DNA of 64,000 nt from positions 262,570,001-262,634,000 of the forward strand of contig OZ024740.1 of assembly GCA_964016885.1 (NCBI GenBank). Direction: 5' to 3'. A program made the translations under genes and the position numbers. The notes beneath the pieces are model-generated. The model worked only from the letters and a program-made list of their open reading frames with translations. It did not search any database and was not told the DNA's origin. Shown piece after piece: positions 9,526 to 61,430 of the stretch (position 1 is the first letter of the stretch; the number at the start of each line of letters is the position of its first letter). Source of the stretch: Eledone cirrhosa. Lineage: Eukaryota.

Positions 9526-10031
9526 ATTAGAATTGGTGCTCTGAATTAGCGATATATATATGAATGTATATATAGTGTATTTTGCAATACACTGTATGCT
9601 TAATTAAAAGCATTTCGAAGACCATACGCTATTGTTTTAGAGTAGTGACAGACTCACTTACTTTAAATTTTTAGCAAACAGGGGAGATAAAGCTGACAGA
9701 GCTCTGTTTCGTACTGATTGGTACTTATCAAAGCCAAGTACTCCACCTGTTTGCTGAAAATCATGAATGTTTGATTCTTATAGAATTCTAGTAATAATCA
9801 GGAACTGATTATACAGAGCGGTTGCCGGTCAGGGAGAAATTGAAAATTAGAATTGGTGCTCTGAAATAGCGATATATATATGAATGTATATATAGTGTAT
9901 TTTGCAATACACTGTATGCTTAATTAAAAGCATTTCGAAGACCTTACGCTATTGTTTTAGAGTAGTGACAGACTCACTTACTTTAAATTTTCAGCAAACA
10001 GGGAATACACTATATATAAATATTTTTCATA
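9526..10031 (-). repeat. ~320-bp hammerhead-containing tandem repeat (retrozyme-like): about 1.5 units plus a short inverted tail
   Basis: Unit start ATTAGAATTGGTGCTCTGAA at 9526 and 9846; same family at 55766-56603. Confidence 0.88.
9668..9760 (-). ncRNA. Type I hammerhead ribozyme, U3-A8 core variant
   Basis: Minus strand 9735-9691 reads GGCT-TTGATAA-GTAC caatca GTAC-GAAA-CAGAGCTCTG-TC-AGCT. Helix I is extended by GGAG/CTCC and AGCAAACAGG/CCTGTTTGCT. Confidence 0.82.
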
Positions 10032-29460: not shown

Positions 29461-29511
<51 letters not shown>

Positions 29512-29724
29512 GAATGCCATGGTTGACGGAGGCTCGGCTCTGTAAGGTATAGTAATTTTTAACCGTTAAAACAATTGTAAATTGTTTAAAACTTGAACCA
29601 AATTGTTGATAAAGACACCCTCCTCCTCGTGAGAGGGGTCTTTCTGTCCGTTATTTGGCCCTTCGGGGTTAAATAGCCAGTTATTGGGGTTTTGTACCCA
29701 AAATTTCATTTTAAACAAAAAAAC

Positions 29725-31824: not shown

Positions 31825-31859
31825 GTGGTCTTTCCCATCTTTTCCACTCTATTTTAAAC

Positions 31860-34800: not shown

Positions 34801-35279
34801 ACCGAGGAGCCTTGCCAGTTCGGGATAAACTCTACAGGCATGGAGGTGCCGTCAGCCGGGCATGTCCGAGATGCGCGCAGGGCGACGAAACCGTCCTGCA
34901 CGCACTCGTCCAGTGTCCGAAAATTGCTGACTTGTGGGTTTATGTCGAACACCTGCTGTCGCGTTTAGGACGGATCCAGCTATCATCTGAGTCTATCGTG
35001 AGGATTGCCCCGCCCTCCTCCTTTAGCCGGGAAGGGCAGGCAGTTTTTATCTGTCTGGTGGCCATGGCGAAAGAGATAGTATGGTGGACACGTTTGAAAG
35101 GGCTGAAGACGAGCACTTACCTCTTCGGTGATGCTCTGATTGACTTTTTCAAATTTCATTTGAAAAGGAAAATCAGAGTAGAGAAGGAAGTGCTCTCTTC
35201 CCAGCATTTTGTTGAAAGATGGGTGAGAGAAGCAAGAATGGCCCGAGTGAATGGGCCGACTCTGAGTATATATCTGTAA
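31860..35279 (+). CDS. Tx1/L1 ORF2: APE endonuclease, reverse transcriptase and C-terminal zinc-binding domain (1139 aa)
   Basis: INARG, SETR, GDWN, YLDR, TDH; LDQSKAFDRVDH, RQGCPLS, YADD; CPRC...ETVLHALVQC. All intact. Confidence 0.97.
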   Translation: MTSLRIGSINARGLGSSWKQGHLLNDLRSLNIDVVAISETRISEARAFAPIFGGYDVYASPSRPGSGGGVAVLFRRGLDLAIRAIFLDPEGKLVVLDVTSGDGQAFRLVAVYAPTGAGRPDFFRRLETFLGTSRSLVLVGDWNGILDARWDCVGLADRGGGCKSLTNLLRRFELSDRYRLDFPNVPMWTWTNRIGSSRSYLDRVFCREIDRSSIGCPQFKIVSYTDHKFVICVLDLDRLHRRGPGYWKLNASLPARKAYRDRISELVKRALTGAIVNNKWWFALKRAIRIESIRFSKALAIEKNRAEGELVRKLDEALSKGIATDVLAAKLALDQFFNAKHEGCVVRARVRALRHEGTKAVQWARVAEARRGNKATIRSLVDHDGRMLLDPGQMCEAFQRHFAQLFGGSGGPGRGMDFSVYLDGLPRLSATEAKCCEKPITAAEVREAMTGCTRGKSPGLDGLPYELYVQMPDLFGGLLADVYCNWQQNGRIPSSVSRGAVALLRKDPNKGDNIDNFRPITLLNTEFKILAKVLAKRLALVVGGLVGEAQTCAIPDRSIHDNLHLMRYIVERVAREPGTGGSLINLDQSKAFDRVDHRYLAAVLRAAGFGPVFRGWIAAMHSDICSVVRVNGHLSEPFNIMRSVRQGCPLSSLLYVLTLEPLLHKLETLRGVPRELGCGRSVSAYADDVTVVVSNAKHIEAIGTTLREYEAVTGAMINQEKSVGLQLGTWRGRSMPSNSVVGRWTDGPVKLLGVWFGPDLQTDKNWDEVTSRVASLTQKWAERKLSLKGRAEVANAYIASVICYRLTVVPCPKPRLTALERLLFRFLWKGRAPMVRRSICCQHPLRGGLGMPWLMMRRHALRLRHLHLFLDGDQVWSPFARRVFPQLVSLTELQSWVKRRPRGSAWRLECLQALTALDQSGNVIGGNSTSAFYRGLVEGKSDDVLGETLGVDENQLANLFGRTFGPGPMDNFQKSLAWQCYRGALPVRDKLYRHGGAVSRACPRCAQGDETVLHALVQCPKIADLWVYVEHLLSRLGRIQLSSESIVRIAPPSSFSREGQAVFICLVAMAKEIVWWTRLKGLKTSTYLFGDALIDFFKFHLKRKIRVEKEVLSSQHFVERWVREARMARVNGPTLSIYL

Positions 35280-35540
35280 ACTAAAGGTGGAAAACTGGGA
35301 GAGGGCACTTGCCTTGGTGGTCAGGGTCATTGTGGCTTTTTACTGGGCTTTCTCCACAAATGTCCCTCCGAAGTCTCCCCCCTATTGGGGAATTTTTCAT
35401 TGTTATTTTCATTGTTATTTTTGTTACATCCTCTATTTTTGTTTTTTTTACACGCAGAAATGCCCATTTGTACCGTCCTGCATTGTCCTGCACTGTCCTT
35501 AATGTCTACTTTATGTAAACCCTTGTGGTTAATAAAGAAA

Positions 35541-35578
<38 letters not shown>

Positions 35579-35590
35579 ATTATTATTATT

Positions 35591-36481
35591 TGAGTCTCAG
35601 TCATTGATGTTAGTTAATTGGAAAGTTTGTTGAAATGAATATCAAGCCACTACCTGCAGCCTGATATTCAGGAAGCATGCCTTTTGAAGCGTTCCAAAAA
35701 GCGTGAAGGGGCCGATTTTCTTTAACCATCCCTGGAAACTTTTTGAGATAGTACCTAGTGCGCCTATGACAATCGGGACCACTTTGACTTCATGACAGTT
35801 CCAAATCTTTTTTACCTCCCACTTTAAGTCCTGGTATCGGTTAATTTTCTCCCTCTCCTTCTCTTGTTCTCTCGTGTCGAATGGGAAAGCCACAACCACA
35901 ATCAGGCACGATCTTTTTTCTTTGTCTACAACCACCAGGTCAGGTCTATTGTGTTCCAGTTTCTTGTCCGTCTGTATCCTAAAATCACACAGGACCTTCA
36001 CCTGTTCGTTTTCTATCACCGACTCTGGCTTATGCTCATACCACTTCTCAGAATGTGGTAAATTGTTTACTTTGCATAGGTGCCAGTGGATCACCCTGCC
36101 CATCACATCATGTCTCCAGCCTTTATAGTGAGTCTGGGCTAGGTGTTTACACTCGGATACAGTGTGAGTCACAGTCTCCTCTCTCTCTCCACAGATCCTG
36201 TACAGTGGGCTAGCCTCCTCCTTCTAAATATGGTATTTCAACCACTTCGTTTTGAGGGCCTGCTCTTGCGCAGCCATTAACATACCTTCTGTAGCCTTTT
36301 TAAGGTCTCCTCTTTTCAACCAGTTCCATGTCTGTGGATCTCTGAATTCAGTTTTCTCAAAGAAGGTAGTATGAAGGGATTTTTCCTGAAGGCTGCTCTT
36401 TCTCCTTCATGTTATTTCCTTCTTGGACCTCCCCTGGTCTATTTTCCTCTCCTGGACATCCCCTGGGCTATTGTCCTCTCC
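35591..36481 (-). mobile_element. R4/Dong-like 3' fragment (family a), inserted in the tail of Tx1 D
   Basis: RHD and RPDLVV motifs in ORF 35642..36172; TAT tracts on both sides. Confidence 0.92.
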
Positions 36482-36526
<45 letters not shown>

Positions 36527-36527
<1 letters not shown>

Positions 36528-39283
36528 CTTGAATCTCAGTCATTGATGTTAGTTAACTGGAAAGTCCGTTGGAATGAATATCAAGCCACTACCTGCAGCC
36601 TCAGATATTCAGGACGTATAGGAGGGTTCTTGCTGTTCCCAGCAAACATGCCTTTTGAAGCGTTCCAAAAAGCGCGAAGGGGCCGATTTTCTTTAACCAT
36701 CCCTGGAATCTTTTGGAGATAGTCACCAGTGCGCCTATGACAATCGGGATCACTTTGACTTCATGGCAGTTCTAAATCCTCTTTACCTCCCACTTTAAGT
36801 CCTGGTATCGGTTAATTTTCTCCCTCTCCTTCTCTTGCACTCTAGTGTCGAATGGGCAGGCCACATCCACAATCAGACACGATCTTTTTTCTTTATCCAC
36901 AACCACCAGGTCAGGTCTATTGTGTTCCAGTTTCTTGTCCGTCTGTATCCTAAAATCTCACAGCACCTTCACCTGATCGTTCTCCATCACCGCCTCTGGC
37001 TTATGCTCATACCATTTCTCAGAATGTGGTAAATTGTTTACTTTGCACAGGTGCCAGTGGATCACCCTGCCCATCACATCATGTCTCCAGCCCTTATAGT
37101 GGGTCTGGGCTAGGTGTTTACACTCGGATACAATGTGAGCCACAGTCTCCTCTCTCTCTCCACAGATCCTGCACAGTGGGCTAGCCTCCTCCTTTTAAAT
37201 ATGGTGTTTCAACCACTTCGTTTTGAGGGCCTGCCCTGCGCAGCCATTAACATTCCTTCCGTAGCCTTTTTAAGGTCTCCTCTTCTCAACCAGTTCTATG
37301 TCTGTGGATCTCTGTGGATTTCTCAAAGAAGGTGCTATGAAAGGATTTTTTCTGAAGGCTGCTCTTTCTCCTTGATGTTATTTCCTCCTTGGACATCCCC
37401 TGGCCTATTGTCCCCGCCTTCAGTACAGTTCTGAGCATTGGCTCCTTACTATCAGTCACGTATTTGTGTAGGTTGTTTTTCTCCATCTGAACACAGTCCT
37501 CTATGCTGATAAGACCTCTTCCACCCTCAGATCTCCTTAGGTAGAGTCTATCGACATCGCTCCTCTTGTGGAACATGTTGTAGATAGTCAATAGCTTCCT
37601 AGTCTTCCTATCCATTTCTTTTTGTTCAGCAACATTCCATATCAGAATTCCCGCACTGTACCTAATAATAGACACAGCTCGGGAATTTACTGCGCTTATG
37701 GCATTTCTGCTGTTCAGATGTGGCTTCAATACGCTCCTTACTCTCCGAATGTATTCAGTTCTTAACAATTCCTTCATTTTTTTGTTCTTAATGCCATCAG
37801 CCTCCAGAACGCCCAAATACTTGTATCCTTCCCCAGAGTCAATTTCCTTTATCATCTCACCTGTTGGTATCTGGATTCCGTTACTTCTGCTCAACCTACC
37901 CCTCCTCATCACAATGACTCCACACTTACTAATACCAAACTGCATACATATATCACTGCTGAAAATACGGACAGTGTCAACATGCACATTCAACTCCTTC
38001 TCACTCTTCCCGAAGAGCTTAAGATCGTCCATGAAGAGGAGGTGATTGATGGTAAGCCCTCCCTTTCCCAACCTGTATCCTGCTCTCACTTTTCGCAGTA
38101 CACTGGTCAGGGGCATCAGGGCAAGGACAAACAACAGAGGGGACAGGCTATCTCCCTGGAAGATACCTCTCTTGATCTTCACGCTTCCCAAGGATTCTCC
38201 AGTTGATTTCAACTCTGTTTCCCAGGACCTCATACTCTTGCTCAACAACTGTCAGATGTTATCTGCCACCTTGAAGATCTCCAGGCTTTTGGTGATCCAA
38301 GAATGAGGCACCATGTCAAATGCCTTTCTGTAGTCTATCCATCCCATGGCAAGATCAGTGTGTCTCCTCCTGCAATTCCCCATTACCATCTTATCAATAA
38401 GTAACTGGTCCTTTGTACCACGTGACTTCTTTCGGCATCCTTTCTGTTCGTCTGATAACAAGTTGTTTGTGTGGAGGTGATGGTAGATTTCCTCAGACAC
38501 AACGCTCGTCAACAGTTTCCACATTACGGACAGACATGTGATAGGTCTATAGTTGGTAACATCATTACCCTTGATTCGGTCTTTAATTTCAGAACTGTGG
38601 TACCTTTTGTCAACCACTCTGGTACCTCACCTGACATCAAGCAGTCATTGAACATGGTTGTCAGTTTCGGGTGGAGGGATGTTATATTTTTAATTCAATA
38701 CCCCTGCACACCATCTGGGCCTGGTGATTTCCAGTTGGTTAGTTTTTTGGCCTGCCCCTTAAGAGTTTCAACTGTGATACTCAAATCAGTTTGTTGGTGT
38801 GCCTGCTCACCGATCTCCCTCTGTACTGTCTCAATCCACACTGCCTGGTCATTATGTCTAACATCCTGCTCCCATATTCCTCTCCAGAATGTTTTAGTTT
38901 GTTCCGCCTCAGGGATCAAGTCGTTGCCTCTTTCTTTCCCCTCAAGCTGTCCAAACAGCATCTTCTGGTTGTTATCGAACATGCGGTTCTGTTTATACTG
39001 ACTGACTCTGTTCTCGTATCGCCTGATTTTTGCACTCTTTGCTACAATGCGTTGCTTCAGTTCCTCTATGATAATATTTAGCTTTTTTCTCCTAGTTTTG
39101 TACTTTATTTCCAGTCTATTTTTAGTGTCTATGTTTTTTAGTGTCCCATTCAGTAGTGACTCAAGCTTTCCAATGTCATTTCTCATTTCCCTGATTTGAC
39201 CACTCAGTCGTTTCTTCAACCAAGGCTCAGCTCTTTCTTGTCTGTTGTTTCCTCTCGCTTTTATACCAAGTAGTTTCCTCACC
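36527..39283 (-). mobile_element. R4/Dong-like element, 5'-truncated (~2.75 kb), few disruptions
   Basis: [26 protein letters not shown] and LFMDDLK (RT), plus RLE domain; TAT tracts on both sides. Confidence 0.94.
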
Positions 39284-40070
39284 GTATTTGCTTATTATTA
39301 TTATTATTATTATTATCATTAATCTTATTATTATTGTTGTTTTCATTTATGTTGTTCTCCTATGGAACTATAAATACTAGTCCGCCGTATCATGTACACA
39401 GATCAGTATTCTGACGATTTGGTTGGGTATCGACTGTAATTAAAGTCAAGTGACGCGACTTTTAGCGATCAGCGACTTTTAGACACCACGGACTATAGAA
39501 ACAATTGTTAACACTTTAAATAAACTCTATTGTACAGCCGTTCATGTTATCCCTCATTCTTTTACGATATATATATATATATATGCGTGTGTGTGTGTGT
39601 GTGTGTGTGCGTGTGTTTGTTTGTTTGTTCCTCGGTAGTTATTAAGTTGAAATATTTATTTGTTTTACTAGATATATACTCACAATATGTGACAGTGTTT
39701 TGTTCGAATATGTACAGTATCTCACTCATGAATCAGCGTTTAGCAAACATAAGATGAAGGCATCCTATCTATAATTTTTGCCAAGAATAGGGATACATTT
39801 CGAATTCAATTTTCTTAGGGTAAAATTATAACATGAAATATATTATACTTAATACAATTGTAAACCACAAGTCGGGATGGAAGTTCAACGGAACTACTTA
39901 TCGCTGAAACATTATTTTAATTGCACCTGATTCAAACGTTATTTAACAGACACACACACACTGAGACACACGCTGACACACACACAGAGACACACAGACG
40001 CACGCAAATACACACACAGGGACACCATACTCAATCACACAAACATATACACGTACGCACACTCACAGAT

Positions 40071-42388: not shown

Positions 42389-42435
42389 ATATATAATAAT
42401 GATTTATTTATTTTAATAATAATAATAATAATAAT

Positions 42436-45400
42436 GATTTCTTTATTGGCCACAAGGGCTGACATCAAGAAAAACATTACAGACGGCACAGTACGGTACA
42501 GGACAGTACGATGTGGGTTTTGTGCGTGTAAATATTTTTATTATTTATATAAGAAAAGCAGTGGGCAGAGGGCAGTGAGCGCCTGGAGACATTCCAGTTT
42601 CCAAGCGCTATTCCTCGGTCTTTTCCTGACCCAGGACTGCAGCTCCGTCAATGAGACGAGCTGTGGGAAAACGTGCCTGGTGAACGGCGACCACACCCTG
42701 TTCACCGTCAAGGAGGCACCAGAGATGTCGCAGCCTCGGCGCATGTTTGCGCTTCATCAGCCATGGCATGCCCTGTCCTCCACGCAACGGGTGTTGACAG
42801 CAGATGGATCGTCTGACCATGGGAGCGCGTCCCTTCCACAAAAAGCGGAAGAGGACGCGCTCCATTTTCTTGAGAGTTGGGCCGGGACAAGGGACGACGG
42901 TGAGGCGGTAGCAGATGACGGATGCGATGTACGCATTCGCCACCTCCGCTCGACCTTTCAGGGATAGCTTCCTCTCTGCCCATTTCTGGGTGAGAGAAGC
43001 CACTCTGTTCGTTACCTCGCTCCAGTTTATCTCCATCTGGAGGTCTGGTCCGAACCAGACCCCGAGCAATTTAACCGGTCCGCCCGTCCAACGCCCCACG
43101 ACGCTGTAGGAGGGCATGGACTTGCCTCTCCAGGTGCCGAGCTGCAAGCCCACCGACTTTTACTGGTTTATCTTTGCTCCTGTCACTGCTTCGTGTTCCT
43201 TGAGAGCGATGCCGAGCATCTGGACGTTTCTGGTGCTCGACACCTGAAGTTATCAATAACATCCCCTTTGTTCGGGTCTTATCTCAGCTGCGCCACCGCT
43301 CCCCGGCTCACAAAACTGGGAATGCTCCAGTTCTGCTGCCAGTTGCAGTAGACGTCTGCCAAGAGGTCACCGAACAAGTCTGTCATAAATGCATAAAGCT
43401 CGTAGGGCAGACCATCCAAACCTGGCGATTTACACCTCGTGTAGTTAGCTATCGCTTCCCGTATTTCACCGGCTGTTATTGGATTTTGCAACACTGTCCT
43501 GCGGTTGGCGAGAGCCGCGGCAGTCCGTCGAGGTATACACTGAAGTCCATAACCCGATCCGGCCCACCGCTGCTACCGAACAGGTCAGCAAAGTGCTGCT
43601 GAAAAGCTTCACCATCTGCTCGGGTTCGAGCAACACGCGCCAGTTTTGGTCAGATAAAGACCGAATTGTGGCTTTGTTGCCACGTCGCCCCTCTGCTACC
43701 CGGGCCCATTGGACCGCTTTTGTAACCTCGTGTTTCAGAGCTCGTGCTCTCGCTCTGACAACGCAGCCTTCGTGTTTTGCGTTGAAGAATTGGTGGAGTG
43801 CCAATCTCGCCGCAAGCACGATGCGTGTCCCAAACGCCAATTCTAGCTTTCTACTAGCTCTCCCTCTACTATATTTTCCTCTATCACTAGTCCTTTGTTA
43901 AACCTAATCGACTCACTTTAATTGGCCTTTTCAGGGCGAATCACCACCTGTTGTTGACGACCGCTCCCGTCAACGCCCGCTTAACTAATACGCTACTCCG
44001 GTCTGTGTAGACTTTGCGCGCCGGGAAAGCCGCGTTCAGCTTCCGGTAACCGTTCCTTGTCTATGAAGTCTGTCTATGCCGATCTTACAGATCACAAATT
44101 TGTGGTCTGTGTAGTCGACTATTTTAAATTGGGGACAACTTATACTAGCCTTGTCTAGTTCTCTGCAGAATGCCCTATCGAGATACTATCTGGATGACAC
44201 GATGCGGTTTGTCCATGTCCACGTTGGCACATTAGGGTGATCCAGTCGATACCTGTCAGACAGTTCAAAACGTCTGAGCAGGTTGGTGAGGCTCTTTCAC
44301 CCTCCTCCCCCTATCCACTAGCCCCACACAATCCCAGCGTGCATCCAAGATATCGTTCCAGTCGCCCACTAACACTAAATAGCGGGACGTTCCAAGAAAG
44401 GTCTCTAGACATCTGAAGAAATCTGGCCGTCCTGTCCCTGTCGGGGCATAGACGGCTACTAGCCTGAACGCGTTGCCTTCGGTGCCGCTTACGTTCAGCA
44501 CCACCGACTTCCCTTCTGGGTCCAGGAAGATAGTCTGTATGGCGAGACCCAAGCCTTTCCGAAACAACACAGCCACTCCGCCCCCCTCCCCCGGACGGCT
44601 CGGAGATGCGTACACCTCGTAACCGTCGAAGATCGATGCCAAAGCTTGCGTTTCGGAGATTCTCGTCTCGCTGATGGCCACCACATTTATGTTTAGTGAC
44701 CTGAGGTCGTTAAGCAAGTGACCCTGCTTCCAAACCGAGCTCAAGCCACGCACGTTTACACTTCCGATCCTGAATACGGCCATGTTGTGTGAGGAACGGG
44801 GCAAGTGAGAAAGGATCACTTACCTTGATCGTCTGGTGGAGGGACCGTTGAATCGTCCCTTCGGCTGGTCGTCGGCTCTTCTGTGAGTATATCCGAGTAT
44901 ACTCTCCCGTTGAGTGTCCCTCCTAGGTCTCTGAAATCACCAACTGCGTTGGGGAATTTTAATGTTTTTGTATTGTTTCTGTGATATTCTTACCAGTCTT
45001 ATGTTCGTTGGTGTTTTGATTGGTGCTGGTATTATGTAGTCGTGCTGTGAAATGGCTGTGTGTTCAATTATGTAAGTCATTAGTTTCTTGTTGTGTATAT
45101 TTATTGCTGTGCATTTGTTTTTCTGGAGGTGTGGTGTGGTTCTGATATTTTCTTCTCGTTGTTGCTGGGTGTGTGTGTTTGTTGTTGTGTTTGCGATGTT
45201 GGTGCTTGTGGTGGTGTTGTTGAAGGTGTTGTTGTTGTTGGCGGTGGGGTAGCCGCCGGTGGTGATGGTAGTGCTAGTGTAGGTGGTGATGGTGTTGGTG
45301 GTGTTGCTGCTGTAAATCTCTTTGCAGTAACCTTCACCCTTTTTTCATTTCTTCCCTTCCTTTTCGAAGGCGACGATGCGCTGCTTCTGCGTTCGTGCCT

Positions 45401-46539
45401 TCTTGCGACCTTTTGCCATCCCTCTCTCACCTCCCACTCCATGTCCGATCCAGTGAGGTCGGGGAGGGGTACCAGCTCCACCCTTTCACTTGTTCTTGTT
45501 GGTGATGGTTGCAGTGGAGTCTCTGTTGCAGCTGCAGTTGGTATTAATCTTGTTGTTGATACTTCCACTGCTGCTGCTGTTCTTGATTTCCGTGGCGTGG
45601 GTATGGGTGCCTCGGACCTATCCTTCCTGCTTGCCGCCAGTCCTGTTGCTGGTAACAGTGGAGCCGGTTTCGGAATGAGAGGGGTTTTCTCCTTTCTCAG
45701 GGTCTTCTCATTGCAGAAGACCCTGAGTTGAGTCTTCGACCCATAGCGAAAGAATTTCGAGCGTTTGCCCTCAACACTTATGGGAAGATGAGTGCCGTTA
45801 TCGAAGTCTATCACATCCGGGATAGCTTCGATGCACTCCTGGTTGGTTTGTTAATTCAATTCGGCGCCTCCATTAAGATGTTAGTCATCTTAATGGAGGC
45901 GCCGACCCAATCTTCTCGTACTTTATTCTGTACTTGCAGTACAGTTGTTTTGTCCTCTATTCTGACGAGGACAGACGCAGCCAGCCAAGAAGGGGCCATC
46001 CCGGAGGGGGGAGGACTTCGGTCAATTTGACCCTCACAATTTTTTGCCCGCAGTAGGAGGGCACCAACACCATTTTCTCGCTCCTTAGGGTTACTAAGGA
46101 TTGAGCCTTTGCCTCCTGGGGTGTGGCAAAAAGCATGTCCACGGTGGCACATTTCTTGCCTCGGGTGATATACTTTTTCTACCGCCACACAGGCCCTAAG
46201 GCTTTTTGTATTTGAGCCTATGTGGCTCTTTCAACCCTACGTGACTTTGTGCTTACTGTACGTTACGTGACCGTTGGGTTTCGAAAACTTCTTCGGCTGC
46301 CTTGCAGATTGCTCTGTGTCCGGTTTTCGTCACCATCTTCCTTGCTTCCCGTAATTCCGCATTTGTTATAAGGATGGTTTCCAGGTTCTTTGCGATACCT
46401 GAAAAACGAGACTGGTTTTTCTTTCTTGTTGTTGTTGTCGTCAGAGCTGCTGCTACTTTTTTTGTTGCTGCTGGTGCTACGACACCGCCACCACTGTTGC
46501 TGTTGTTGTTGTTGTTGTTGTTGTTGCTGCTGCTTTTGT

Positions 46540-46570
<31 letters not shown>

Positions 46571-48222
46571 TATGCTGCTGCTGCTGATGTTGTTGCGGCT
46601 GCTACTAGTATTTTCCTCGCCACTGTTGCTGCTGCCGTTATTACGGCTGCTGCTGCTATTCTTCCTGAAATGGCTTTCAATGAAATGGCTAGGTCGAGGA
46701 GTGGAAAATCCTGCTCAGGCGTTGGTTTTGGTTGTGGTGTGGTGGATGGTGGAGGCGCTGTTGCTAATTCTGGCGCAGTTTCTTCTGTAGTTGCTGCCAT
46801 TTCTGCTGGTGGTTTTGAGTCACTGGGGTGGGTAGGAGAGGTGGTCTCAACCTTTTAGCCTGGGGGCAGAAAGCCTTTGGGTGGGTTCCTTCGCCACAAA
46901 CGACACACCTTGGCCCTCTACCCTCAACGATTACGGTGAGGTGGCTGCCGCCATTGAGGTCTATCACCTCTGGAATTTACTCTATGTTATTTTGGTCTGC
47001 TTGGATCAGGAGATCCATCCCAGATCCGGACGAGTTTTCCTGCTTTACTTTGTTACTTCAATTACTTTAGTGTTGGCCTCGATGTCGGTGAGGATAGCAG
47101 CCATTAGCCAGGTAATTTCGATGGCCGGTGGAACGTGGGTCACACTGATCTTCACTAGTCTCTGACCGCAATAGCATGGGGCGAGTGTGAACTCGTCACT
47201 TCTTAATGAGGCCATGGAGTGCTCTCTGGCTTCCTCTGGGGTTCCAAAGAACACGTCCACAGTTCCATATATCTTTCCACGTCTGATGTGGGATTTATTC
47301 GCCCACACATTTCCCAAAGCTTTTTTTATTTGGGACTCGGATGCCCGTTCTACTCGGAGTGATTTTGTGTTTATCCTCCGATATGACACGGTGCAAAGGC
47401 GCCAATGCTCCATTTTATTTGATGGGGGGGGGGGGCTGATCCCTGAAACCCATCTTTTTTTACCATCCGCTTGGCTTCATTCAATTCTTCCCGGCTTACC
47501 TCGATTGTTTCGCTTTTACTTGACTGCATTGGCGAAGACGCATTTTGTTTTTCGCTGCTGTTATTGTTGCTGTTGTTGTTATTATTCTCATTGTTGCTGT
47601 TGTTGTTATTGTTATTTTTGTTATTGTTATTTTTAGTTTCAGTTGTGGTGGTGGTGGTGGTGGTGGTGGTGGTGGTGGTGGTGGTGGTGGTTGTGTGAGT
47701 GGTGTTCGGCGTGGAACAGTCGATTCTGGGTGAATCCATTTCGATGTCACGAGATAATAATTTATTTTTTGTTTCTATTGTCGCTGTGGTGGTATCAGTG
47801 GTGTTGGTTGTTCTTTTTGACATTGTGGCGGTGCGGCTTTAACACCTGTAGTTATTGGTAATGGAGGGAAATCCATGTCTTTATGCGGTAAATCTATATA
47901 ATTGAGACTGCTATTAATTATATTTTCAGTGTTAGCAACCGTGGCAAGGTTTACAATGGTGGTGGTGGTGGGGGATGTTAGTCTGTTAAAAAAGGAGATT
48001 TGTCGTCCATGTTTTTTTTTTCACCGAAATATTTTGTTTGATAAATAAAAAGTTTAAATTTTGGGCTCAAGACCCCAATATTATTGAGTGACCTTTTCAG
48101 AAAGCAATATACGTGAATTTATAAACACTTAACAACAAAATTTTCCAGAACTGGCAATTTGAAACAACTGGTAACAAACCTTTGTGGAGCTCACGATAAT
48201 ACGATTTCCTACGTAGGTCGCC
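42436..48222 (-). mobile_element. Tx1 LINE copy E, chimeric (type-2 5'UTR/ORF1, then type-3 ORF1, then a divergent deleted ORF2)
   Basis: 5' end GGCGACCTACGTAGG at 48222; two ORF1 homologies in tandem; ORF2 ATG at 44783; 3' AATAAAGAAATC followed by (ATT)n. Confidence 0.92.
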
Positions 48223-48234
48223 AATAATAATAAC

Positions 48235-48274
<40 letters not shown>

Positions 48275-48277
<3 letters not shown>

Positions 48278-48682
48278 CTGGAACACAATAGACCTGACCT
48301 GGTGGTTGTGGACAAAGAAAAAAGATCGTGCCTGATTGTGGATGTGGCCTGCCCGTTCGACACGAGAGTGCAAGAGAAGGAGAGGGAGAAAATTAACCGA
48401 TACCAGGACCTAAAGTGGGAGGTGAAAAGGATTTGGAACTGCCGTGAAGTCAAAGTGATCCCGATTGTCATAGGCGCACTGGGGACTATCTCCAAAGGTT
48501 TCCAGGGATGGTTAAAGAAAATCGGCCCCTTCACGCTTTTTGGAACGCTTCAAAAGGCATGCTTGCTTGGAACGGCAAGAACCCTCCGATACGTCCTGAA
48601 TATCTGAGGCTGCAGGTAGTGGCTTGATATTCAATCCAACGGACTTTCCAGTTAACCAACATCAATGACTGAGATTCAAGGA
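48275..48682 (+). mobile_element. R4/Dong-like 3' fragment (family a)
   Basis: ORF 48302..48607 encodes the RLE C-terminus; (AAT)n on both sides. Confidence 0.92.
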
Positions 48683-48719
48683 ATAACAATAACAATAATA
48701 ATAATAATAATAATAATAA

Positions 48720-48974
48720 GGGTCTATTGATTACTTATCGCAAATCCCAGGAAACCCGTGTATAGGAGAAATACAAATGATAGTACTAATGGGAACTGCC
48801 CATATACTAAGGAAGATTCTGTCAATATAAGTACATCACAAGTCTAAACACTAAAGATGCATGTGTGAGTATGTATGTTCTTTCTTGAACATGGCGGACC
48901 TTGTTGTCTCTTGAGGTCACTGGTTGTGACTTGGTGATAACTCTTATGAACATAAAGCAAGATAAATGCAACTG
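48720..48974 (+). mobile_element. RLE 3' fragment (family b)
   Basis: Reverse complement of about 5562-5818; ends in (TAA)n. Confidence 0.85.
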
Positions 48975-48990
48975 TAATAATAATAATAAT

Positions 48991-50627
48991 GTTAAGTCTG
49001 TCTCCCAGGACTTCATACTTTTGCTCAACAACTGTCTGATGTTATCTGCCACCTTTTGGTTATCAAGAATGAGGTACTATGTCGAATGCCTTTTTGTAAT
49101 CTATCCATCCCATGGCAAGACCAGTGTGTCTCCTCCTGCAATTCCTCATTACCATCTTATCAATAAGTAACTGGTCTTTTGTACCACGGAACTTCTTTCG
49201 GCATCCTTTCTGTTCGTCCGGTAACAAGTTGTTTATGTGGAGGTGATACTAGATTTCCTCAGACAATGCTTGTTAACAGTTTCCACATTACGGACAGACA
49301 TGTGATAGGTCTATATTTGGTAACATGATTACCCTTGATTCGGTCTTTGAGGGAGATGACACCAAGAACAAAAATATGAAGGAATCGATAAGATCTGAGT
49401 ACATTAGGAGAGTAAGGAGCGTATTAAAATCGCATCTAAATAGTAGGAATGTCATAAGTGCAGTGAATTCCCGAGGTGTGTCTATTATTAGGTACAGTGC
49501 GTGAATTCTGATATGGAATATTGCTGAACAAATAGAAATGGATAGGAAGACTAGGAAGCTATTGACTATCTACAACATCTTCCACAAGAGGAGTGATGTC
49601 GATAGACTATACTTAAAGAGATCTGAAGGTGGAAGAGGTCTTATCAGCATAAGAGGTCTGTGTTCAGATGGAGAAAAACAACCTACACAAATACGTGACC
49701 GATAGTAAGGAGCCAATGCTCAAAATTGTACTGAAAGAGAGGATAATAGACCAGGGGATGTCCAAGGAGGATATAACAACATGGAGGAAGAGTAACCTTC
49801 ATGAAAAATCCCTTCATAGTACCTTCTTTAAGAAAACGGAATTTAGAGATCCACAGACATGGAACTGGTTAAAAAGAGGAGACCTTAAAAGGGCTACAGA
49901 AGGAATGCTAATGGCTGCACAAGAGCAGGCCCTCAAAACGAAGTGGGTGAAACATCATATTTACAAGGAGCAGGCTAGCCCACTGTGTAGGATCTGTGGA
50001 GAGATAGAGAGGAGGTTGTGGCTCACATTATATCCGAGTGTAAACACCTAGCCCAGACTCACTATAAAGGCTAGAGTCATGTGATGGGCAGGGTGATCCA
50101 CTGGCACCTATGCAAAGTAAACAATTTACCACATTCTGTGAAGTGGTATGAACATAAGCCAAAGTCGGTGATAGAAAACGATCAGGTGAAGGTGCTGTGG
50201 GATTTTAGGATACGGACGGACAAGAAATTAGAACACAATAGGCCTGACCTGGTGGTTTTGGACAAGGAAAACAGATCGTGCCTGATTCTAGATGTAGCCT
50301 GCCCATTTGACACGAGAGTGCAAGAAAAGGAGAGTGTGAAAATTAACCGATACCAGGACTTAAAGTGGGAGATAAAAAGGATTTGGAACTGCATGAACTC
50401 AGAGTCCCGGTTGTCATAGGCACACTAGGTACTATCTGAAAGAGTTTCCAATGATGGTTAAAGAAAATTAGTCCAGCCCCGCTTTTTGGAACACTTCAAA
50501 AGGAATGCTTGCTGAGAACAGCAAGAACCCTTCGATACGTCCTGAATATCTGAGGCTACAGGTAGTGATTGATATTCATCTCAACAAACTTTCCAGTTAA
50601 ATAACATCAATGACTGAGACTCAAAGA
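48991..50627 (+). mobile_element. R4/Dong-like element with an inverted 5' segment (48991-49348 on minus)
   Basis: An inverted RT-region piece is joined to a sense 3' portion ending in (AAT)n. Confidence 0.85.
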
Positions 50628-50662
50628 ACAATAATAATAACAACAATAATAATAATAATAAT

Positions 50663-50847
50663 TGTTTCTACTTTTAGGCACAAGGCCAGCAATTACCCAG
50701 TGCATTACTGGTACTTTATTTTATCGACCCCGTAAGGATGAAAGGCAATGTCAACCTCGGCGGGATTTGAACTCCGATCGTAAAGGGACGTAACTATGCT
50801 GGAAAGCATGGCGTCCGACCCTCTACCGATACTGCCAATCCACCGCC
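50663..50847 (-). mobile_element. tRNA-derived SINE
   Basis: Reverse complement of the 4811-5000 family; a short internal piece is duplicated at ~50847-50876. Confidence 0.9.
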
Positions 50848-50889
50848 CCGTAAGGATGAAAGGCAAAGTTAACTTCTAATAATAATAAG

Positions 50890-52046
50890 CAATGATATAT
50901 GTATGGAATTTGGTATCAATAATTGCGAGTCCTAGTGATGAAGCGGGGTAAATTGAGCAGAAGCAACGGAATCCAGGTACCAACAGGTGAGATGATAAAT
51001 AAAATTGACACTGAGGAGGGATACAAATATTTAGGTGTTCAGAAGCAGATGACATGAAGAACAAAAAGAAGTAGGAATAGATAAGATCTAAGTACATAAG
51101 GACAGTTAGGAGCGTATTAAAATCACATCTAAATAGTAGGAATGTCATAAGTGCAGTGAAATCCCGAGCTGTGTCTATTATTAGGTACAGTGCGGGAATT
51201 CTGAGATGGAATGTTGCTGAACAAAAAGAAATGGATAGGAAGACTAGGAAGCTATTGACTATCTACAACATGTTCCACAAGCGGAGTGATGTTGATAGAC
51301 TCTACTTAAGGAGGTCTGAAGGTGGAAGAGGTCTTATGAGCATAGAGGACTGTGTTCAGATGGAGAAAAACAACCTGCACAGTTGGAAGCCAATGATCAA
51401 CATTGTACTGAAGGAGAGGACAATAGACCATGGGGTCTCCACAGAGGAAATAACAAGGTGAAAAAACAACCTTCATGAAAAATACCTTCATGAAAAATAC
51501 CTTATTTAAGCAAACGGAATTTAGAGATCCAGACATGGAACTGGTTAAAAAGAGGAGACCTTAAAAAATCTACAGAAGGAATGCTAATGGCTGCATAAAA
51601 GCAAGCACTCAGAACGAAGTGAGCGAAATACCATATATACAAGGAGGAGACTAGCCCACTGTGTAGGATCTATGGAAAGAAAAAGGAACTGTGGCTCACA
51701 TTGTATCCGAGTGTAAAAACCTAGCCCAGACTCACTATAAAGGCTGGAGACACGATGTGATGGGCAGGGTGATCCACGGGCATCTATGCAAAGTAAACAA
51801 TTTACCACATTCTGAGAAAATTAACCGATACCAGGATTTAAAGTGGAAGTTAAAAAAGATTTGGAATTGCCATGAAATCAAGGTCGTTCCGGTTGTCATA
51901 GGCACACTAGGTACTATCTCAAGGAGTTTCCAATGATGGTTAAAGAATATTAGTCCAGCCTCGTTTTTTGGAACACTTCAAAGGCATGCTTGCTGGGAAC
52001 TGCAAGAAACCTCCGATATCTCCTGAATATCTGAGGCTGCAGGTAG
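50890..52046 (+). mobile_element. R4/Dong-like fragment, degraded with internal deletions
   Basis: RLYLRRSEGGRGL, RHD and KINRYQDL motifs. Confidence 0.88.
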
Positions 52047-52184: not shown

Positions 52185-52518
<334 letters not shown>

Positions 52519-55498: not shown

Positions 55499-55694
55499 AG
55501 AAAAACCACAGACCCTCCATCTCAACTCTACTTTTGAAAAGCAGAAGAACTGCGAAACCGGTAAAGGAACCAAATAAATATATATGTATTTTTAAAACAA
55601 TAAGACGTTGCATTTTCGATTTCATCTTTTTTTCTTGATATTTTTACTCATGTAGGACACCTCGGTTATTTTTCATTTTGTAAAAAAACCTCAC

Positions 55695-55771
<77 letters not shown>

Positions 55772-55913
55772 TGTATATATATATGAATGTATATATAGTG
55801 TATTTTGCAATACACTGTATGCTTAATTAAAAGCATTTCGAAGACCTTATGCTATTGTTTTAGAGTAGTAACAGTCTCACTTACTTCAAATTTTCAGCAA
55901 ACAGCATAGATAA

Positions 55914-55958
55914 AGCTGACAGAGTTATGTTTCGTACTGATTGGTACTTATCAAAGCC
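55914..55958 (-). ncRNA. Hammerhead ribozyme, U3-A8 variant (helix III partly mutated)
   Basis: GGCT-TTGATAA-GTACCAATCAGTAC-GAAA-CATAACTCTG-TC-AGCT. Confidence 0.7.
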
Positions 55959-56236
55959 ACGTACTCCACCTGTTTGCTGAAAATCATGAATGTTTGATTC
56001 TTATAGAATTTCTAGTAATAATCAGCAACTGATTATACAGAGCGGTTGCCGGTCAAGCAGAAATTGAAAATTAGAATTGGCGCTCTGAAATAGCGATATA
56101 TATATATGAATCTATATATAGTGTATTTTGCAATACACTGTATGCTTAATTAAAAGCATTTCGAAGACCTTATGCTATTGTTTTAGAGTAGTGACAGTCT
56201 CACTTACTTTAAATATTCAGCAAACAGGGGAGATAA

Positions 56237-56281
56237 AGCTGACAGAGCTATGTTTCGTACTGATTGGTACTTATCAAAGCC
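56237..56281 (-). ncRNA. Hammerhead ribozyme, U3-A8 variant
   Basis: GGCT-TTGATAA-GTACCAATCAGTAC-GAAA-CATAGCTCTG-TC-AGCT with an intact helix I extension. Confidence 0.75.
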
Positions 56282-56390
56282 AAGTACTCCACCTGTTTGC
56301 TGAAAATTATGAATGTTTGATTCCCCTGTTTGCTGATTATTACTAGTAATTCTATAAGAATCAAACATTCATGATTTTCAGCAAGTACTT

Positions 56391-56435
56391 GGCTTTGATA
56401 AGTACCAATCAGTACAAAACATAGCTCTGTCAGCT
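56391..56435 (+). pseudogene. Inactivated hammerhead copy (G12 to A)
   Basis: GAAA is replaced by AAAA and the helix I extension carries a deletion. Confidence 0.7.
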
Positions 56436-57559
56436 TTATGTCCCCTGTTTGCTGAACATTTAAAGTAAGTGAGACTGTCACTACTCTAAAACAATAGCAT
56501 AAGGTCTTCGAAATGCTTTTAATTAAGCATACAGTGTATTGCAAAGTACACTATATATATACCTTCATATATATATATCGCTATTTCAGAGCCCCATTTC
56601 TAACATATGCATATATAGGCTTGGCAACTTGTTGGTATAAGACGTGAATTGTCGTCTCTCCAGATTTAATTGTCGTCTCTCCAGATTTAATATATTAAAT
56701 CGACAGTAATCGGATTTATGTATGGTTTTAATTTTTCAGAAAACAAGGAAAACATACAAAAAAGATAAGTTTTTGTGCTTTGACGCAATTATTTTGAAGT
56801 ATATTTTACATATATTACCGTTTTAAACGTGTTTATTTTCACTGTGTGATACCTTCCTAGGAGACAACACACACACGTGCGTTCTATTTTTCTTGACTAC
56901 CATACAGAGCATACGTAATCTAATTTTAGTTTAACTTAAACAGATCTTGTATTATTTTGATTTTTCTGAGTAACATAATTTAATTTAATATAATCTTGTT
57001 TAATTTGGTATAATCTCATCTGTTTTTGACTCGGTTTTGTTGTTTCTTGTTTGATATGTTGATATTACAATAACTTCGTATATTTGTAAACAAACATTTA
57101 GATTCAACTTATATACAACTTACATCGTATTTCTATATCTCTATGATTCCGGTTTCTTCCATTCATTAATTTAATTTAAAATTTATTTTATATTTATGAA
57201 CTACTATTGCTCACACTGTCTCTATCTCTCTCCTTCCTTCCTCTCTCTCTCTCTCTCCCTCTCTCTCTCTCTCTAGATCAACGAGCTCTCTCTCTCCCTC
57301 TCCCTCTCTCTCCCTCACTCTCTATATATATATCCTCTCTCTCCCTCTGACCTCCCCCCTACTCTTCCCGCTATCTCTCTCGCTCCCCTCTTCTGTCTCT
57401 CCCCCTTTTCTTTTCTTTTCTTCTGTTTCTCTTTCTTTTTCTCGCTGGAGTTATATTTATCTCACTGGTGTTATATCTATATCTCCCTCCCTCCCTCTGT
57501 CCCTCTCTAACCTCTACCCTACACTTCCCACTGTCTCTCTTTCTCCCCTCCTCAGCGAA

Positions 57560-58501
57560 ATGGACTGCATGCAGGAAATAGGTGAAACTGGGAGTCAACG
57601 AAACTGGTCAAAGATGGAACTAGCGGTTTTGATCAAGGGGTGGACCATGGCTGATGGGTCTCCACCAATCAAAAAGATGGCGGAGAACCTGAAGAGCCAT
57701 GGGTTTCTGAGGACCCTGGCACAGATAGAGAGAAAGAGAAAAGAAATTGAGAAGGCGTATGTCCTCATAGCGCCACATATGGCGATGCTAAGCCGTGTCC
57801 TCAGGGAGGAGAAAACCGAAGGGAGGGACGAGGAGAAGGAGAGGGAAAAGGAGGAGGAAAAAGAAAAGGAGGAGAGCACAAGCACGGACCTGAAAGAAAA
57901 TGATATACCCTCCGCCACAGGCAGGGAGGGCAGGCCGGGCAACCAACAAGCTAAGGGCAAAGGTGAAAAGCAAAATCACCTTCCGAAGGAGAACCAAGCG
58001 CAGAGGGACCAGTGGACAACTGTTCAAAGGAAGAACAGAAAGCACCGAGACACTGGGAGCAAAAAACCCCAAGTAATGTGCAAGTTTTTCAAGAACGGGA
58101 CATGCTGGCATGGAGAGACAGGGATGGGATGCAGATTCGCCCACCCTAGGTCTCAAACGAACTATGCCCATCATACTCGCGCAACATGCCCCAGCCAAAG
58201 CCGAAATAAGCCGCTCCAGAAGTATGCTGATGTCGCGCGTGCCGCACCAACAAGGAGAAGCCACGCACATGCCGACGAGATACAGATGGCAGCAGCAGAT
58301 CAGAAACATTTTTTAGTGATGGCAGAGAAGATTGTGGGACAGCTGACCTGGCTGCATCGTCTCCAGAGCCAGGGTCATCCACACCAGCACTCGAGACCAC
58401 CGCAGTTAAGGGACCCAGAGTGGCCGCCGCTGACACCAGACCAGGTGTCATACCGACAGCTATTACTGGCACCCCAAAAGTCACACCAGTGCTGCTGCTG
58501 A
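57560..58501 (+). CDS. LINE ORF1 (313 aa): Myb/trihelix-like N-terminus, acidic linker, CCCH zinc finger
   Basis: WSKMELAVLIKGW...MAENLKSHGFLRTLAQIERKRKEIEKAY; CKFFKNGTCWHGETGMGCRFAH. Confidence 0.75.
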   Translation: MDCMQEIGETGSQRNWSKMELAVLIKGWTMADGSPPIKKMAENLKSHGFLRTLAQIERKRKEIEKAYVLIAPHMAMLSRVLREEKTEGRDEEKEREKEEEKEKEESTSTDLKENDIPSATGREGRPGNQQAKGKGEKQNHLPKENQAQRDQWTTVQRKNRKHRDTGSKKPQVMCKFFKNGTCWHGETGMGCRFAHPRSQTNYAHHTRATCPSQSRNKPLQKYADVARAAPTRRSHAHADEIQMAAADQKHFLVMAEKIVGQLTWLHRLQSQGHPHQHSRPPQLRDPEWPPLTPDQVSYRQLLLAPQKSHQCCC

Positions 58502-61430
58502 ATGTCAGGGGCCTGGTGAAACTCAGTAACATGAGTAAAATTTCCTATCTGGGAGACTTAGCCATAAGCAATCAAGCACTATGCATGGCACTAACCGAAA
58601 CGCACCTGACAAGCAGTATAGCAGATGCAGAAATACATATACCGAAATATACTGTATTTCGTTCGGACAGGAAGGAGAGAACTCATGGTGGGGTTGCTCT
58701 GTATATCCGTGAAGATGTCACACCAATTGTACTGTTGACACATTCAAACTCAGTCTGTGACACACTGATAATACATATGAAGCAACTACAGACAGTAATA
58801 TGTGTCACATATCGGCGGCCCGATGCCCCCAGTCATGAGGGTAAATTTGAGGATAGCCTAAGTAGGATAGAAGAGGTCCTTGACAAACTGGACCAGGGTC
58901 TCAACATCCTACTGCTGGGAGACTTCAACCTACCAAAGGTGAAATGGCCTGAGGTCCACCTCTTCCCTGGAATGACGTCAATAGAACAGAGACAGACGGA
59001 ATCCCTGCTGGCCCTCACACACAGGCTGTTCATGGAGCAAGCAATACTCCTCCCAACAAGAGGCGAAAATGTCCTGGACCTCTGTTTTACAAACAACGAA
59101 GTGCTCATCCACAATGTAAAGGTGACACCAACAATTCTCTCGGATCATAACTTAGTAGAGCTAATGATATGTGGTCCAGGAGAACCAACAGAGACAAAAC
59201 CACCAAGAAGCTCCAGGACCTTATCCAGCCTTAACTTCTACAAGGCTAACTGGAAAAAGATTAAGAGTGAAATCCGGAAGCAAACATGGAGTGAAAATAC
59301 CGCCACACAAGACACTAACACACAATTTCAACACTTCATGACAACGATACACACCATATGCAAAAAGTGTGTCCCGGAGAAAGAGGCAAACAGACACAAA
59401 AATCTTATTCCCAGAGATAGGAAAATCCTTATGAGCCGTAGAACTAAACTCTCAAACCAGTTGAATAGTCAACAAAACTAAAACAAGAAGGAATCTTATT
59501 TGAAACGTGCACTACTTGACACCGAGATTGCACTCAAACTTTCACATGAGAATGAAAGGGCAAAGAAAGAGAACAGGGCCATAGAAAACATTAAAACAAA
59601 CCCTAAGGCCTTCTTTAAATTTGCAAAAGAAACTGCCTCAGTACACTGCAAGATTGGGCCACTCTTCCACACGGACGGTTCATTAACCGAAAATCCCCAA
59701 GAGATATGTGAAATACTGAACGAACAGTACAAAAGTGTCTTCACATGTCCACTGAGGCACATGCAAATAACGAAGCCAGAGGAGTTCTTTGATGCCACAA
59801 CACTACATCAAGAAATGGCAACCATCAACCACATAGACATAACGGAGGAGGACGTGGTGTACGCCATTGATAAAATTAGAACAGACTCGGCTGCTGGACC
59901 TGATGGATTCCCAGCAGTTCTCTTAAAAATATGTAAGCGGGCCTTAGCAACTCCACTGAAGATGCTCTTCAGAAGCTCCTTGGCTAGCGGTGTACTACCC
60001 AGGGAGCTGAAAGAAGGCACAATATGCCCTATCCATAAAGGAGGTAGTAGAGCGGAGGCCAAGAACTATAGGCCAATCTCCGTGACGTCGCATATCAGTA
60101 AGGTCATGGAGCGAGTCGTCAGAAAGAAACTAAAGAAAATGACCGCCTGACTAGCACGCAACATGGCTTCCGCCCAGGAAGAAGCTGTCTTACACAGCTG
60201 CTACATCACTACGACTGGGTACTGAGACAACTACTAGACAGCTCACATGTGGACGTGATATATCTTGACTTTGCGAAGGCCTTTGACAAGGTCGACCACG
60301 GAATGATATGTCACAAACTACACGGACTCGGCATAACTGGAAAAGTAGGTGAGTGGCTGCATGGCTTCCTAAGGGACAGAAGCCAGGCAGTCGCAGCCAA
60401 TGGGGCCCACTCGAGGGAAACACCGATAACAAGTGGGGTGCCCCAGGGGACAGTCCGGGGACCACTACTGTTTTTGGTGGCTCTCTCGGACATGCCCTCT
60501 GTGGTGCATGCAACAACATCCCTCACTAGCTATGCTGATGACACTAAGGTAGCACAGTCAATCAAAAACCCGGCTGACGCTGCCCTTTTACAGCAGGATC
60601 TGGATGCCATATATAGATGGGCGGAAGAAAACAACATGCAGTTTAATGCTGGCAAATTCCAAGCCCTACAATACAAACCTGCAAACACAAATATAGTGGA
60701 ACACAGCTACACAGGACCAGGAGGGACCGATATCCCCGTGTCAAAATCGATACGAGACCTGGGCATAGACATGATGCATGTTTTTCTTCACACATCATGA
60801 AAATGGCGACAATGTGCAGACGACTCGCTGGCTGGATCTTGAGGAGTTTCCGGACAAGAGATCGAGACACCATGTTGACACTGTGGAGGACTTTTGTCCT
60901 AAGCCGCCTGGACTACTGCTCCCAGTTGTGGTCACCCCATAGTGTCAAACTAACCACGGAGCTTGAGGCAATCCAGCGAAGCTACACCAAGAGGATTGCC
61001 AAGATGAGGGAGACAAGCTACTGGGAGAGGCTAAAGGAACTGAACCTCTACTCCTTGGAGCGAAGACGGGAGAGATACGCAGTGATCTACATGTGGAAAA
61101 TCCTGGAGGGACTAGCACCAAACTTTGTCATTGGGAGCTGGACCAACCGTCGAACAGGACGTCACTGTGTGGTGCCAAAGGCCCCGTCTTCCACATCTAG
61201 AATAATGAGCAGGTATTGCAATAGCCTGGGATTCAAGGGCCCTCAACTCTTCAACATGCTGCGAGGCATCTGAGAGACTTGCATGACGTGGAGGTGGATG
61301 TCTTTAAGAAACATCTCGACACCTTGTTATCCAGGTTCCCGGATGAGCCCACAGCAAGACACGAGGGAAACCTAAGGGCAGCAGCAACAAACTCTCTCTT
61401 ACACCAGTGGCCAACCTATACAGGCTGGAG
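58486..61430 (+). pseudogene. CR1-like ORF2 (APE endonuclease plus RT) with stops and frameshifts
   Basis: LNVRGL, ETHL, GDFNLP, LDL, SDH; YLDFAKAFDKVDH, GVPQG, YADD; RLDYCSQLWSP, LYSLERRR. Confidence 0.9.

Follow-up and report, generated by a model that had tools for sequence, protein, structure and literature searches.

A 323-nt hammerhead unit in Eledone cirrhosa that resembles animal non-LTR retrozymes, with insertion ends that point to Penelope-like machinery

A short hammerhead-bearing unit occurs at two loci of the 64,000-nucleotide stretch of Eledone cirrhosa DNA analyzed here (the window), and its insertion ends have a form that suggests Penelope-like transposons as the source of the inserting enzymes. 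Locus 2 is read, with moderate confidence, as a non-autonomous hammerhead retroelement (non-LTR retrozyme) inserted in trans by the reverse transcriptase (RT) and GIY-YIG endonuclease of a Penelope-like element (PLE); as end marks of the PLE type are seen at both loci, PLE machinery is proposed as the inserter of the retrozyme unit. The kind of system is already known, and the junction anatomy usefully supports PLE-driven mobilization. Feature coordinates are collected in Table 1.

Table 1. Features of the two loci and of the neighboring motif, in window positions
Feature	Positions	Strand	Remarks
Locus 1	9526..10003	-	1.49 units, one intact hammerhead (U3 9731, C17 9695)
Inverted piece closing locus 1	10004..10018	+	15 nt exact, ends in internal TA tract, tail-less
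Neighboring piece with hammerhead-like motif	55500..55701	+	U3 55534, A17 55563, U3-A8 core, 6-nt palindromic helix III, helix I 3 bp
(TA)34 tract, putative insertion target	55701..55768		68 nt, bordering the left end of locus 2
Unit 1, 3'-most in RNA	55766..56069	-	stops in its own internal TA tract, tail-less, 16-nt slippage duplication
Hammerhead 1, type I, U3-A8 core	55896..55978	-	U3 55954, C17 (cleavage) 55918
Monomer, cleavage site to cleavage site	55918..56240	-	323 nt, 34% G+C
Unit 2, 5'-truncated at 56323	56070..56323	-	56070-56096 is the segment forming the tail at element ends
Hammerhead 2, type I, U3-A8 core	56219..56301	-	U3 56277, G12 56256, C17 (cleavage) 56241
Inversion junction	56322..56336	+	15 nt equal to unit 2 (RNA sense) immediately 3' of the cleavage site
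Inverted 5'-truncated copy, dead hammerhead	56330..56603	+	0.85 unit, 274 bp
Tail-bearing end of locus 2	56578..56603	+	26 bp past the internal TA tract

Architecture of the Loci

Locus 2 contains a direct repeat (55774-56000 and 56097-56323, 96% identity, spacing 323) which carries two type I hammerheads on the minus strand, followed by an inverted copy. An earlier note on this DNA had placed two same-strand cores 323 bp apart at 55914 and 56237; the cores and their spacing hold, and the two positions are the left edges of helix I. Hammerhead 2 is built from a helix II of 4 bp with a 6-nt loop, a helix I of 4 bp, an internal loop and a long extension. Hammerhead 1 has an intact core, a 3-nt change in its helix I extension, and has lost the helix III palindrome. 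The G12-to-A change claimed for the inverted hammerhead is present at 56416 (U3 at 56395), and 9 nt of the helix I extension are missing after 56383; as G12 is the general base of the hammerhead (available text of PMC6155905), this copy is fairly called dead. The claimed fold-back of roughly 250 bp is likewise borne out, its arms being 56070-56323 and ~56359-56603 (about 250 bp) with an ungapped core of 193 nt at 95%, and the locus does adjoin a (TA)n tract. Short microhomologies flank the 15-nt insert of the inversion junction on both sides. Rfam microRNA matches over the fold-back were far under threshold and were discarded as mere hairpin matches.

Folded as a circle, the monomer is predicted to reach -78.3 kcal/mol (z -4.5), a value reached by none of 100 shuffles. 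The longest ATG frame in the rolling monomer is 25 codons, and the two longer stop-to-stop frames that span locus 2 gave no Pfam match. Locus 1 is about 95% alike to locus 2 with unrelated flanks; its tail-bearing end lies at a (TA)11 run, and the short inverted piece that had been noted at its other end proves exact over its 15 nt.

In searching the window for hammerheads, a generic descriptor gave 3 matches against 1 in 30 dinucleotide shuffles, and a looser descriptor gave 4 against 0 in 40 shuffles. The helix sizes and internal loop of the unit hammerhead are canonical and its pairs covary; the core at both loci is the U3-A8 variant and not C3-G8, which is probably the cause of the Rfam miss, as no hammerhead match over the window reached the gathering threshold (HH9 was weak, at an E of 0.22). 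A scan of metagenome and viral contigs with the unit hammerhead pattern gave no match. A perfect 12-nt palindrome in helix III is found at locus 1 alone, with a self-duplex of -20.1 kcal/mol; at locus 2 the duplex energies are -7.3 kcal/mol for unit 2, 0.0 for unit 1 and -1.0 for the pair of unit 1 with unit 2. The palindromic helix III proposed earlier therefore stands for locus 1 and for the family, whose variation retains it, but is lost in unit 1 and weaker in unit 2.

Family Abundance and Ribozyme Variation

Nine of 14 public runs match the stretch or part of it, none of them recorded as RNA, and four of the 14 (X1, X12, X4 and X5) were compared with one permuted monomer; X5 belongs to a group of runs, X5-X9, in which the shares were small. 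In organism A the unit was matched by 2670 contigs of X1 and 3489 reads of X12, in organism B by 32 contigs of X4 and in organism C by 2 contigs of X5; these totals are not copy numbers. The unit is an abundant, high-copy family, and abundant enough for junction marks to be counted genome-wide.

Variation in the ribozyme was read from 40 of 63 variants listed, the 17 from 56230 rightwards being analyzed. Among those listed for X12, a helix II U-A pair is changed to C-G at shares of 0.236 and 0.241 on its two sides, another C-G pair of helix II to U-A at 0.116 and 0.113, and the helix III loop is changed at 0.098 and 0.100 with the palindrome retained; these counts are marginal and not linked haplotypes, and a few subfamily events may underlie them. 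Besides the three doubly changed pairs, two changes repair or keep a pair; a helix I G.U is changed to A-U at a share of 0.54. None of the 11 unpaired core positions carries a variant, again among the variants listed for X12. The majority letter at 56250 (0.76 in X12) is the one that gives the perfect 12-nt palindrome of locus 1. In X4 the helix II changes stand at an equal two-contig depth of 9.89, which suggests that the paired changes are linked.

As three ribozyme pairs are changed on both sides at matching shares, the unit ribozyme, including its helix III palindrome, is judged to have been under selection and to be functional at the level of the family, a reading which draws on covariation in the letters. 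The helix III loop bases cannot pair in a monomeric tetraloop, so the upkeep of the palindrome points to a dimeric helix III; the compensated loop change would be natural evidence that dimeric cleavage was selected, even where a monomeric helix of 4 bp could form.

Five 'molecule end' peaks in the RAD run X12 (56010, 56065, 56072, 56148 and 56212) were rejected as element termini and taken as restriction ends, since every one of them coincides with an AATT site (in the reference for four, in the majority allele for the fifth), and the loose ends at these peaks were rejected as ligation chimaeras. Depth in X1 is 496k at 56162, 48-58k at 56258-56291 and 255k at 56026, with no steady fall from one 3' end. 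Joints that go back 323 nt show only continuity across the chosen cut point of the monomer.

Insertion Ends and Junctions

Read as RNA, each locus has two 3' ends, both facing outwards. The left end of locus 1 (9526/7) and the right end of locus 2 (56603) fall within 1 nt of the same unit position (the equivalent of 56070), 170 nt 3' of the cleavage site, an agreement expected by chance about 3 times in 323 by simple arithmetic. The left end of locus 2 and the inverted piece of locus 1 both end in the internal TA tract, about 27 and 44 nt earlier. A tail of 26-27 bp is thereby found on one side only at both loci, and at both an inverted 5'-truncated copy stands beside a partial tandem, the inverted part being 274 bp in one and 15 bp in the other. 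Both loci have (TA)n at their left end, and a TA-like stretch of 14 nt lies at the right of locus 2. The reading of two start sites is based on four ends at two loci, and the tail-less ends could instead be products of later slippage between TA tracts.

The RNA 5' ends are not constant: that of locus 1 stops 11 nt before the next cleavage site, and those of locus 2 are at 56323 and 56330. An inversion through the 7-nt microhomology used at locus 2, with an identical landing point, is carried by one X4 contig (depth 3). Apart from this contig, six opposite-strand joints were seen, each at a place of its own, five of them in single X1 contigs and one in X12 with 4 reads. The earlier note had expected copies to begin at circularly permuted positions around the unit; this is contradicted by the four RNA 3' ends in the window, which occupy two fixed places. 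The fixed ends remove that proposed sign of a circle, though a circle copied from a fixed internal start may give the same ends.

In contrast, the tandem-plus-inverted ends that the note had called Penelope-like are seen at both loci, together with the (TA)n target and the one-sided tail. PLE insertions are described with an inverted 5'-truncated copy, a tail at one end and a microsatellite target (PMC8557442), and with the one PLE examined in vitro AT-rich DNA is cut and extended on both strands, reverse transcription starting at two internal sites which bound the tail (PMC11167929); both papers are cited here from the portions available. As observations beside these, CTAA precedes 4 of the 36 (TA)n run edges among those listed, at 55128 (+), 55701 (+), 52560 (-) and 9527 (-); CTAA is also the last letters of the unit tail and may be a 3' end that several elements targeting (TA)n have in common. 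A palindromic element of ~150-200 bp occurs at 9354-9506 and 52283-52463 (~70% alike), each copy beside (TA)n and one abutting locus 1.

Since every end feature of the loci is a PLE feature, the unit could be taken for the pseudo-LTR (pLTR) of an autonomous PLE, the loci being its 5'-truncated partial tandems; U3-A8 cores are reported in PLE hammerheads (PMC4209133), and retrozymes are related to pLTRs in the available text of Li, Clavereau and Pollet (bioRxiv 10.64898/2026.07.22.740005). Upstream of the hammerheads at both loci, however, the same unit recurs after 323 (320) nt with no ORF between, the join across 56070 is present in an X4 contig too, and the canonical helix sizes with a long helix I extension are unlike the minimal PLE motifs, which leaves this explanation with very little probability.

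Mobility of another kind, by a LINE in trans or at the DNA level as a MITE, a fold-back or a Helitron-type element with internal repeats, is held to be highly improbable. It would account for the long terminal inverted arms of locus 2 and for a possible 7-nt duplication, a match between 55695-55701 and 56597-56603 that flanks the locus amid microsatellites and may be a target-site duplication or the neighbor's own end. Several microsatellite-associated LINE families also crowd the window, and LINEs are left open as retrozyme partners (available text of PMC7229834). Locus 1, however, has only 15 inverted bases and the two ends of each locus differ, the inversion points vary (six opposite-strand joints at six places), there is no poly(A), tRNA gene or match to Pol III A/B boxes, and a ribozyme under selection implies an RNA step.

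Circular or Linear Template

The direct arms span 1.73 turns of the unit at locus 2 and 1.49 at locus 1 and pass through intact cleavage sites, so that the template was not a cleaved linear monomer. The three copies of locus 2 have in common a minor letter at 56250 (24% in X12), and both copies of locus 1 a minor letter at the position of 56198; this sharing of family-minor letters within a locus argues that each locus came from one template lineage. The copies of locus 1 differ at 2 of 110 sites against 3-8 between loci. Those of locus 2 differ mutually at 4-7 of 110 sites (unit 2 and locus 1 at 3-5), so that age blurs the template test there.

A circle is a plausible template, and an uncleaved linear multimer suits the data just as well. 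The same element and PLE partner could have worked from the linear multimeric transcript of a homogenized tandem donor, in which the hammerhead only frees the 5' end, as in an internally deleted PLE reduced to its pLTR; this is an unlikely explanation, though one of real weight. After a full unit, locus 1 stops 11 nt on the 3' side of a cleavage site, which leans to a 5'-cleaved linear RNA; a loose end in X1 (7 contigs, median 12 nt) leads into those same letters, a weak point in its favor. The fixed RNA 3' ends also suit this reading, head-to-tail insertions are described for non-autonomous PLE derivatives in the available text of PMC8557442, and uncleaved RNA was the main substrate for PAc in vitro (PMC11167929, in part). 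Against this, the animal retrozymes tested, from coral, mussel and axolotl in three phyla, all gave circles in the account available from PMC7229834, and both arms of locus 2 cross intact cleavage sites of a seemingly efficient, selected ribozyme, which a ligated circle explains simply.

Proposed Mechanism

In the favored reading of a retrozyme inserted by a PLE in trans, donor copies elsewhere in the genome would be transcribed as multimers whose hammerheads cut at GUC, either as monomers or as dimers through the palindromic helix III, and a host ligase would close the 323-nt monomer into a circle. The PLE protein would then cut a (TA)n tract on its two strands, and each 3' end so made would start a cDNA on one and the same RNA. 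The two start points would be fixed internal positions ~27-44 nt apart, one being the RNA's own (UA)n tract, able to pair with the target, and the other the tail end. One cDNA would pass more than once round the template (1.73 and 1.49 turns) while the other would be shorter (0.85 turn and 15 nt), and microhomology would join the two, giving tandem and inverted copies with a tail on one side only.

Some evidence is set against this model. The RTs found in the window belong to AP-endonuclease and presumably RLE-type LINEs, without a PLE partner. The single PLE tested in vitro could insert without its hammerhead (PMC11167929), and of nine Xenopus retrozyme dimers one was cleaved (bioRxiv 10.64898/2026.07.22.740005), both according to the text available from these sources. 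The more specific proposal, that the ends bear the marks of a small circular RNA on which a PLE primed from both target ends, through the (UA)n tract and tail signal of the circle, and that the piece at 55500-55701 is an end of the partner PLE, is tentative and rather doubtful; if true, it would be direct junction evidence for the enzyme that moves animal retrozymes and for its start on the circle.

Release of a Monomer from Locus 2

The earlier note had proposed that the tandem units could excise a monomer of ~323 nt. The two intact cores 323 bp apart are in place for this, but excision from this copy is doubtful, with hammerhead 2 sequestered and the palindrome of hammerhead 1 lost. In equilibrium predictions without tertiary contacts, a read-through RNA of the minus strand has hammerhead 2 entirely base-paired with the inverted arm (helix II probability 0.00, against 0.81 alone), and the antisense arm precedes it in transcription of that strand; hammerhead 1 is predicted to stay free in the same RNA, at 0.79. 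For both cores, folds with 3-bp monomeric helices come within 1.5-2.3 kcal/mol of the optimum, and cleavage may be possible from a start just upstream of hammerhead 2. Folded alone, the tandem part pairs unit with unit (helix II probability 0.14-0.15, helix I 0.01 even in the best copy), so equilibrium folding of this part cannot judge activity. Owing to the sequestering arm and the lost palindrome, locus 2 is probably a spent product and not a source, with predicted poor release of monomer; a general point suggested by this is that an inverted arm can silence the copy which it caps.

Neighboring Elements and Search for a Partner

A Pfam scan of 129 window ORFs (96 of the 99 stop-to-stop frames of at least 60 aa outside LINE blocks, and 33 others) found no PLE RT, GIY-YIG or PLE-associated domain, in accordance with the earlier statement that no Penelope-like RT is encoded in the window; the three omitted frames are microsatellite-derived, and short or decayed PLE fragments could be missed by such a scan. 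The RTs present are AP-endonuclease LINE domains and RT fragments, and the minus-strand RT family has what we take to be the look of an RLE-type LINE.

The window holds a head-to-tail array of about three AP-endonuclease LINE copies with zf-RVT at 18244-35590 (+), of period ~6 kb and 89-95% alike, including one ORF2 of 1195 aa at 31692-35279, with more distant copies at 38-4807 (+) and 42393-48275 (-). Broken LINE copies, which we presume to be RLE-type, lie at 12155-14953, 35544-39292 (-), 48275-52046 (+) and 4815-6360; they are partly tandem and carry an RT and a C-terminal nuclease-like region. To the right of locus 2, an exact 21-bp tandem duplication is found after 44 bp (56647-56688), and an AP-endonuclease LINE with frameshifts after 600 bp (57200-61273, +).

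Directly left of the (TA)34 tract lies a piece of ~200 bp (55500-55701), between (TG)n and (TA)n and in single copy in the window, with a hammerhead-like motif which is unrelated to the unit hammerhead and was matched in none of 40 shuffles. The putative cleavage site of the motif and the (TA)n edge are 137 nt apart, and the last 6 nt of the piece are those of the unit tail, letters which may alternatively belong to a duplicated target. Rfam gave no hammerhead match to the motif, and its pattern had no match in metagenome contigs. A U3-A8 core with a 6-nt palindromic helix III is the build described for some PLE motifs (PMC4209133, in part), and the piece may be a truncated PLE end.

Comparison with Known Systems

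On its sequence features the unit is assigned to the animal non-LTR retrozymes, which it fits on every feature that could be tested. Retrozyme units are short tandem repeats of ~150-450 bp with G+C under 45-50%, compared to 323 bp and 34% here; a type I hammerhead in at least two consecutive units is found at locus 2 (locus 1 has only one), coding capacity is absent, and a dispersed and tandem repeat family is seen in the two loci of the window and the matches in public runs. Target-site duplications of retrozymes, where present, are longer than 4 bp; the 7-nt match on the two sides of locus 2 may be one, or may belong to the end of the neighboring piece. Other classes were set aside: an autonomous PLE, as no RT or GIY-YIG ORF lies in the element; a MITE, as the ends differ within each locus and the inverted parts are 274 bp and 15 bp; and a tRNA-derived SINE, with no match to simple Pol III A/B box patterns and no gene called by ARAGORN.

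The papers compared below are represented by their available portions. Animal non-LTR retrozymes (Cervera and de la Pena 2020, PMC7229834; Li, Clavereau and Pollet 2026, bioRxiv 10.64898/2026.07.22.740005) share with the unit a non-coding tandem repeat of ~170-400 nt and low G+C, one type I hammerhead per unit, a high copy number and a branched fold that keeps the ribozyme region local; the U3-A8 core is unlike theirs. In these portions the inverted 5' copy, one-sided tail and (TA)n target seen here go unmentioned for retrozymes. No published retrozyme copies with a one-sided tail and an inverted copy were found, PMC7761336, PMC8969392 and PMC6765202 included as far as their available text goes, though subscription papers, Repbase entries or supplements may have one. 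A literature search on the spelling U3-A8 returned PMC4209133 as its sole match, and the spelling U3A8 none. The published case for PLE mobilization of retrozymes draws on co-occurrence, shared hammerheads and pLTR phylogeny, the authors of the two retrozyme papers calling the mechanism open, and PLE-specific junction marks on retrozyme copies would be more direct evidence for it.

The hammerheads of the Cercyon PLE of Schistosoma mansoni (Cervera and de la Pena 2014, PMC4209133) are like the unit in U3-A8 covariation and a palindromic helix III; unlike the unit, which has full helices I-III in tandem, they are minimal and mostly single, and the neighboring motif at 55534 is closer to them than is the unit hammerhead. 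Non-autonomous Chlamys derivatives such as MRC1 (PMC8557442) are comparable as non-coding PLE passengers with pLTRs and head-to-tail insertions, but most Chlamys elements lack canonical hammerheads and they are green algal. The insertion ends are matched by those of EN+ PLEs (Craig et al. 2021, PMC8557442; Frangieh et al. 2024, PMC11167929), which show partial tandems, an inverted 5'-truncated copy, a tail at one end, a microsatellite target and a fixed internal RT start 3' of the hammerhead (170 nt in the unit). The tail, measured to the TA tract, is 26-27 bp long in the unit compared to 30-40 bp in EN+ PLEs, and the unit differs from them in having no RT/GIY-YIG ORF and in a hammerhead that is canonical where that of PLEs is minimal.
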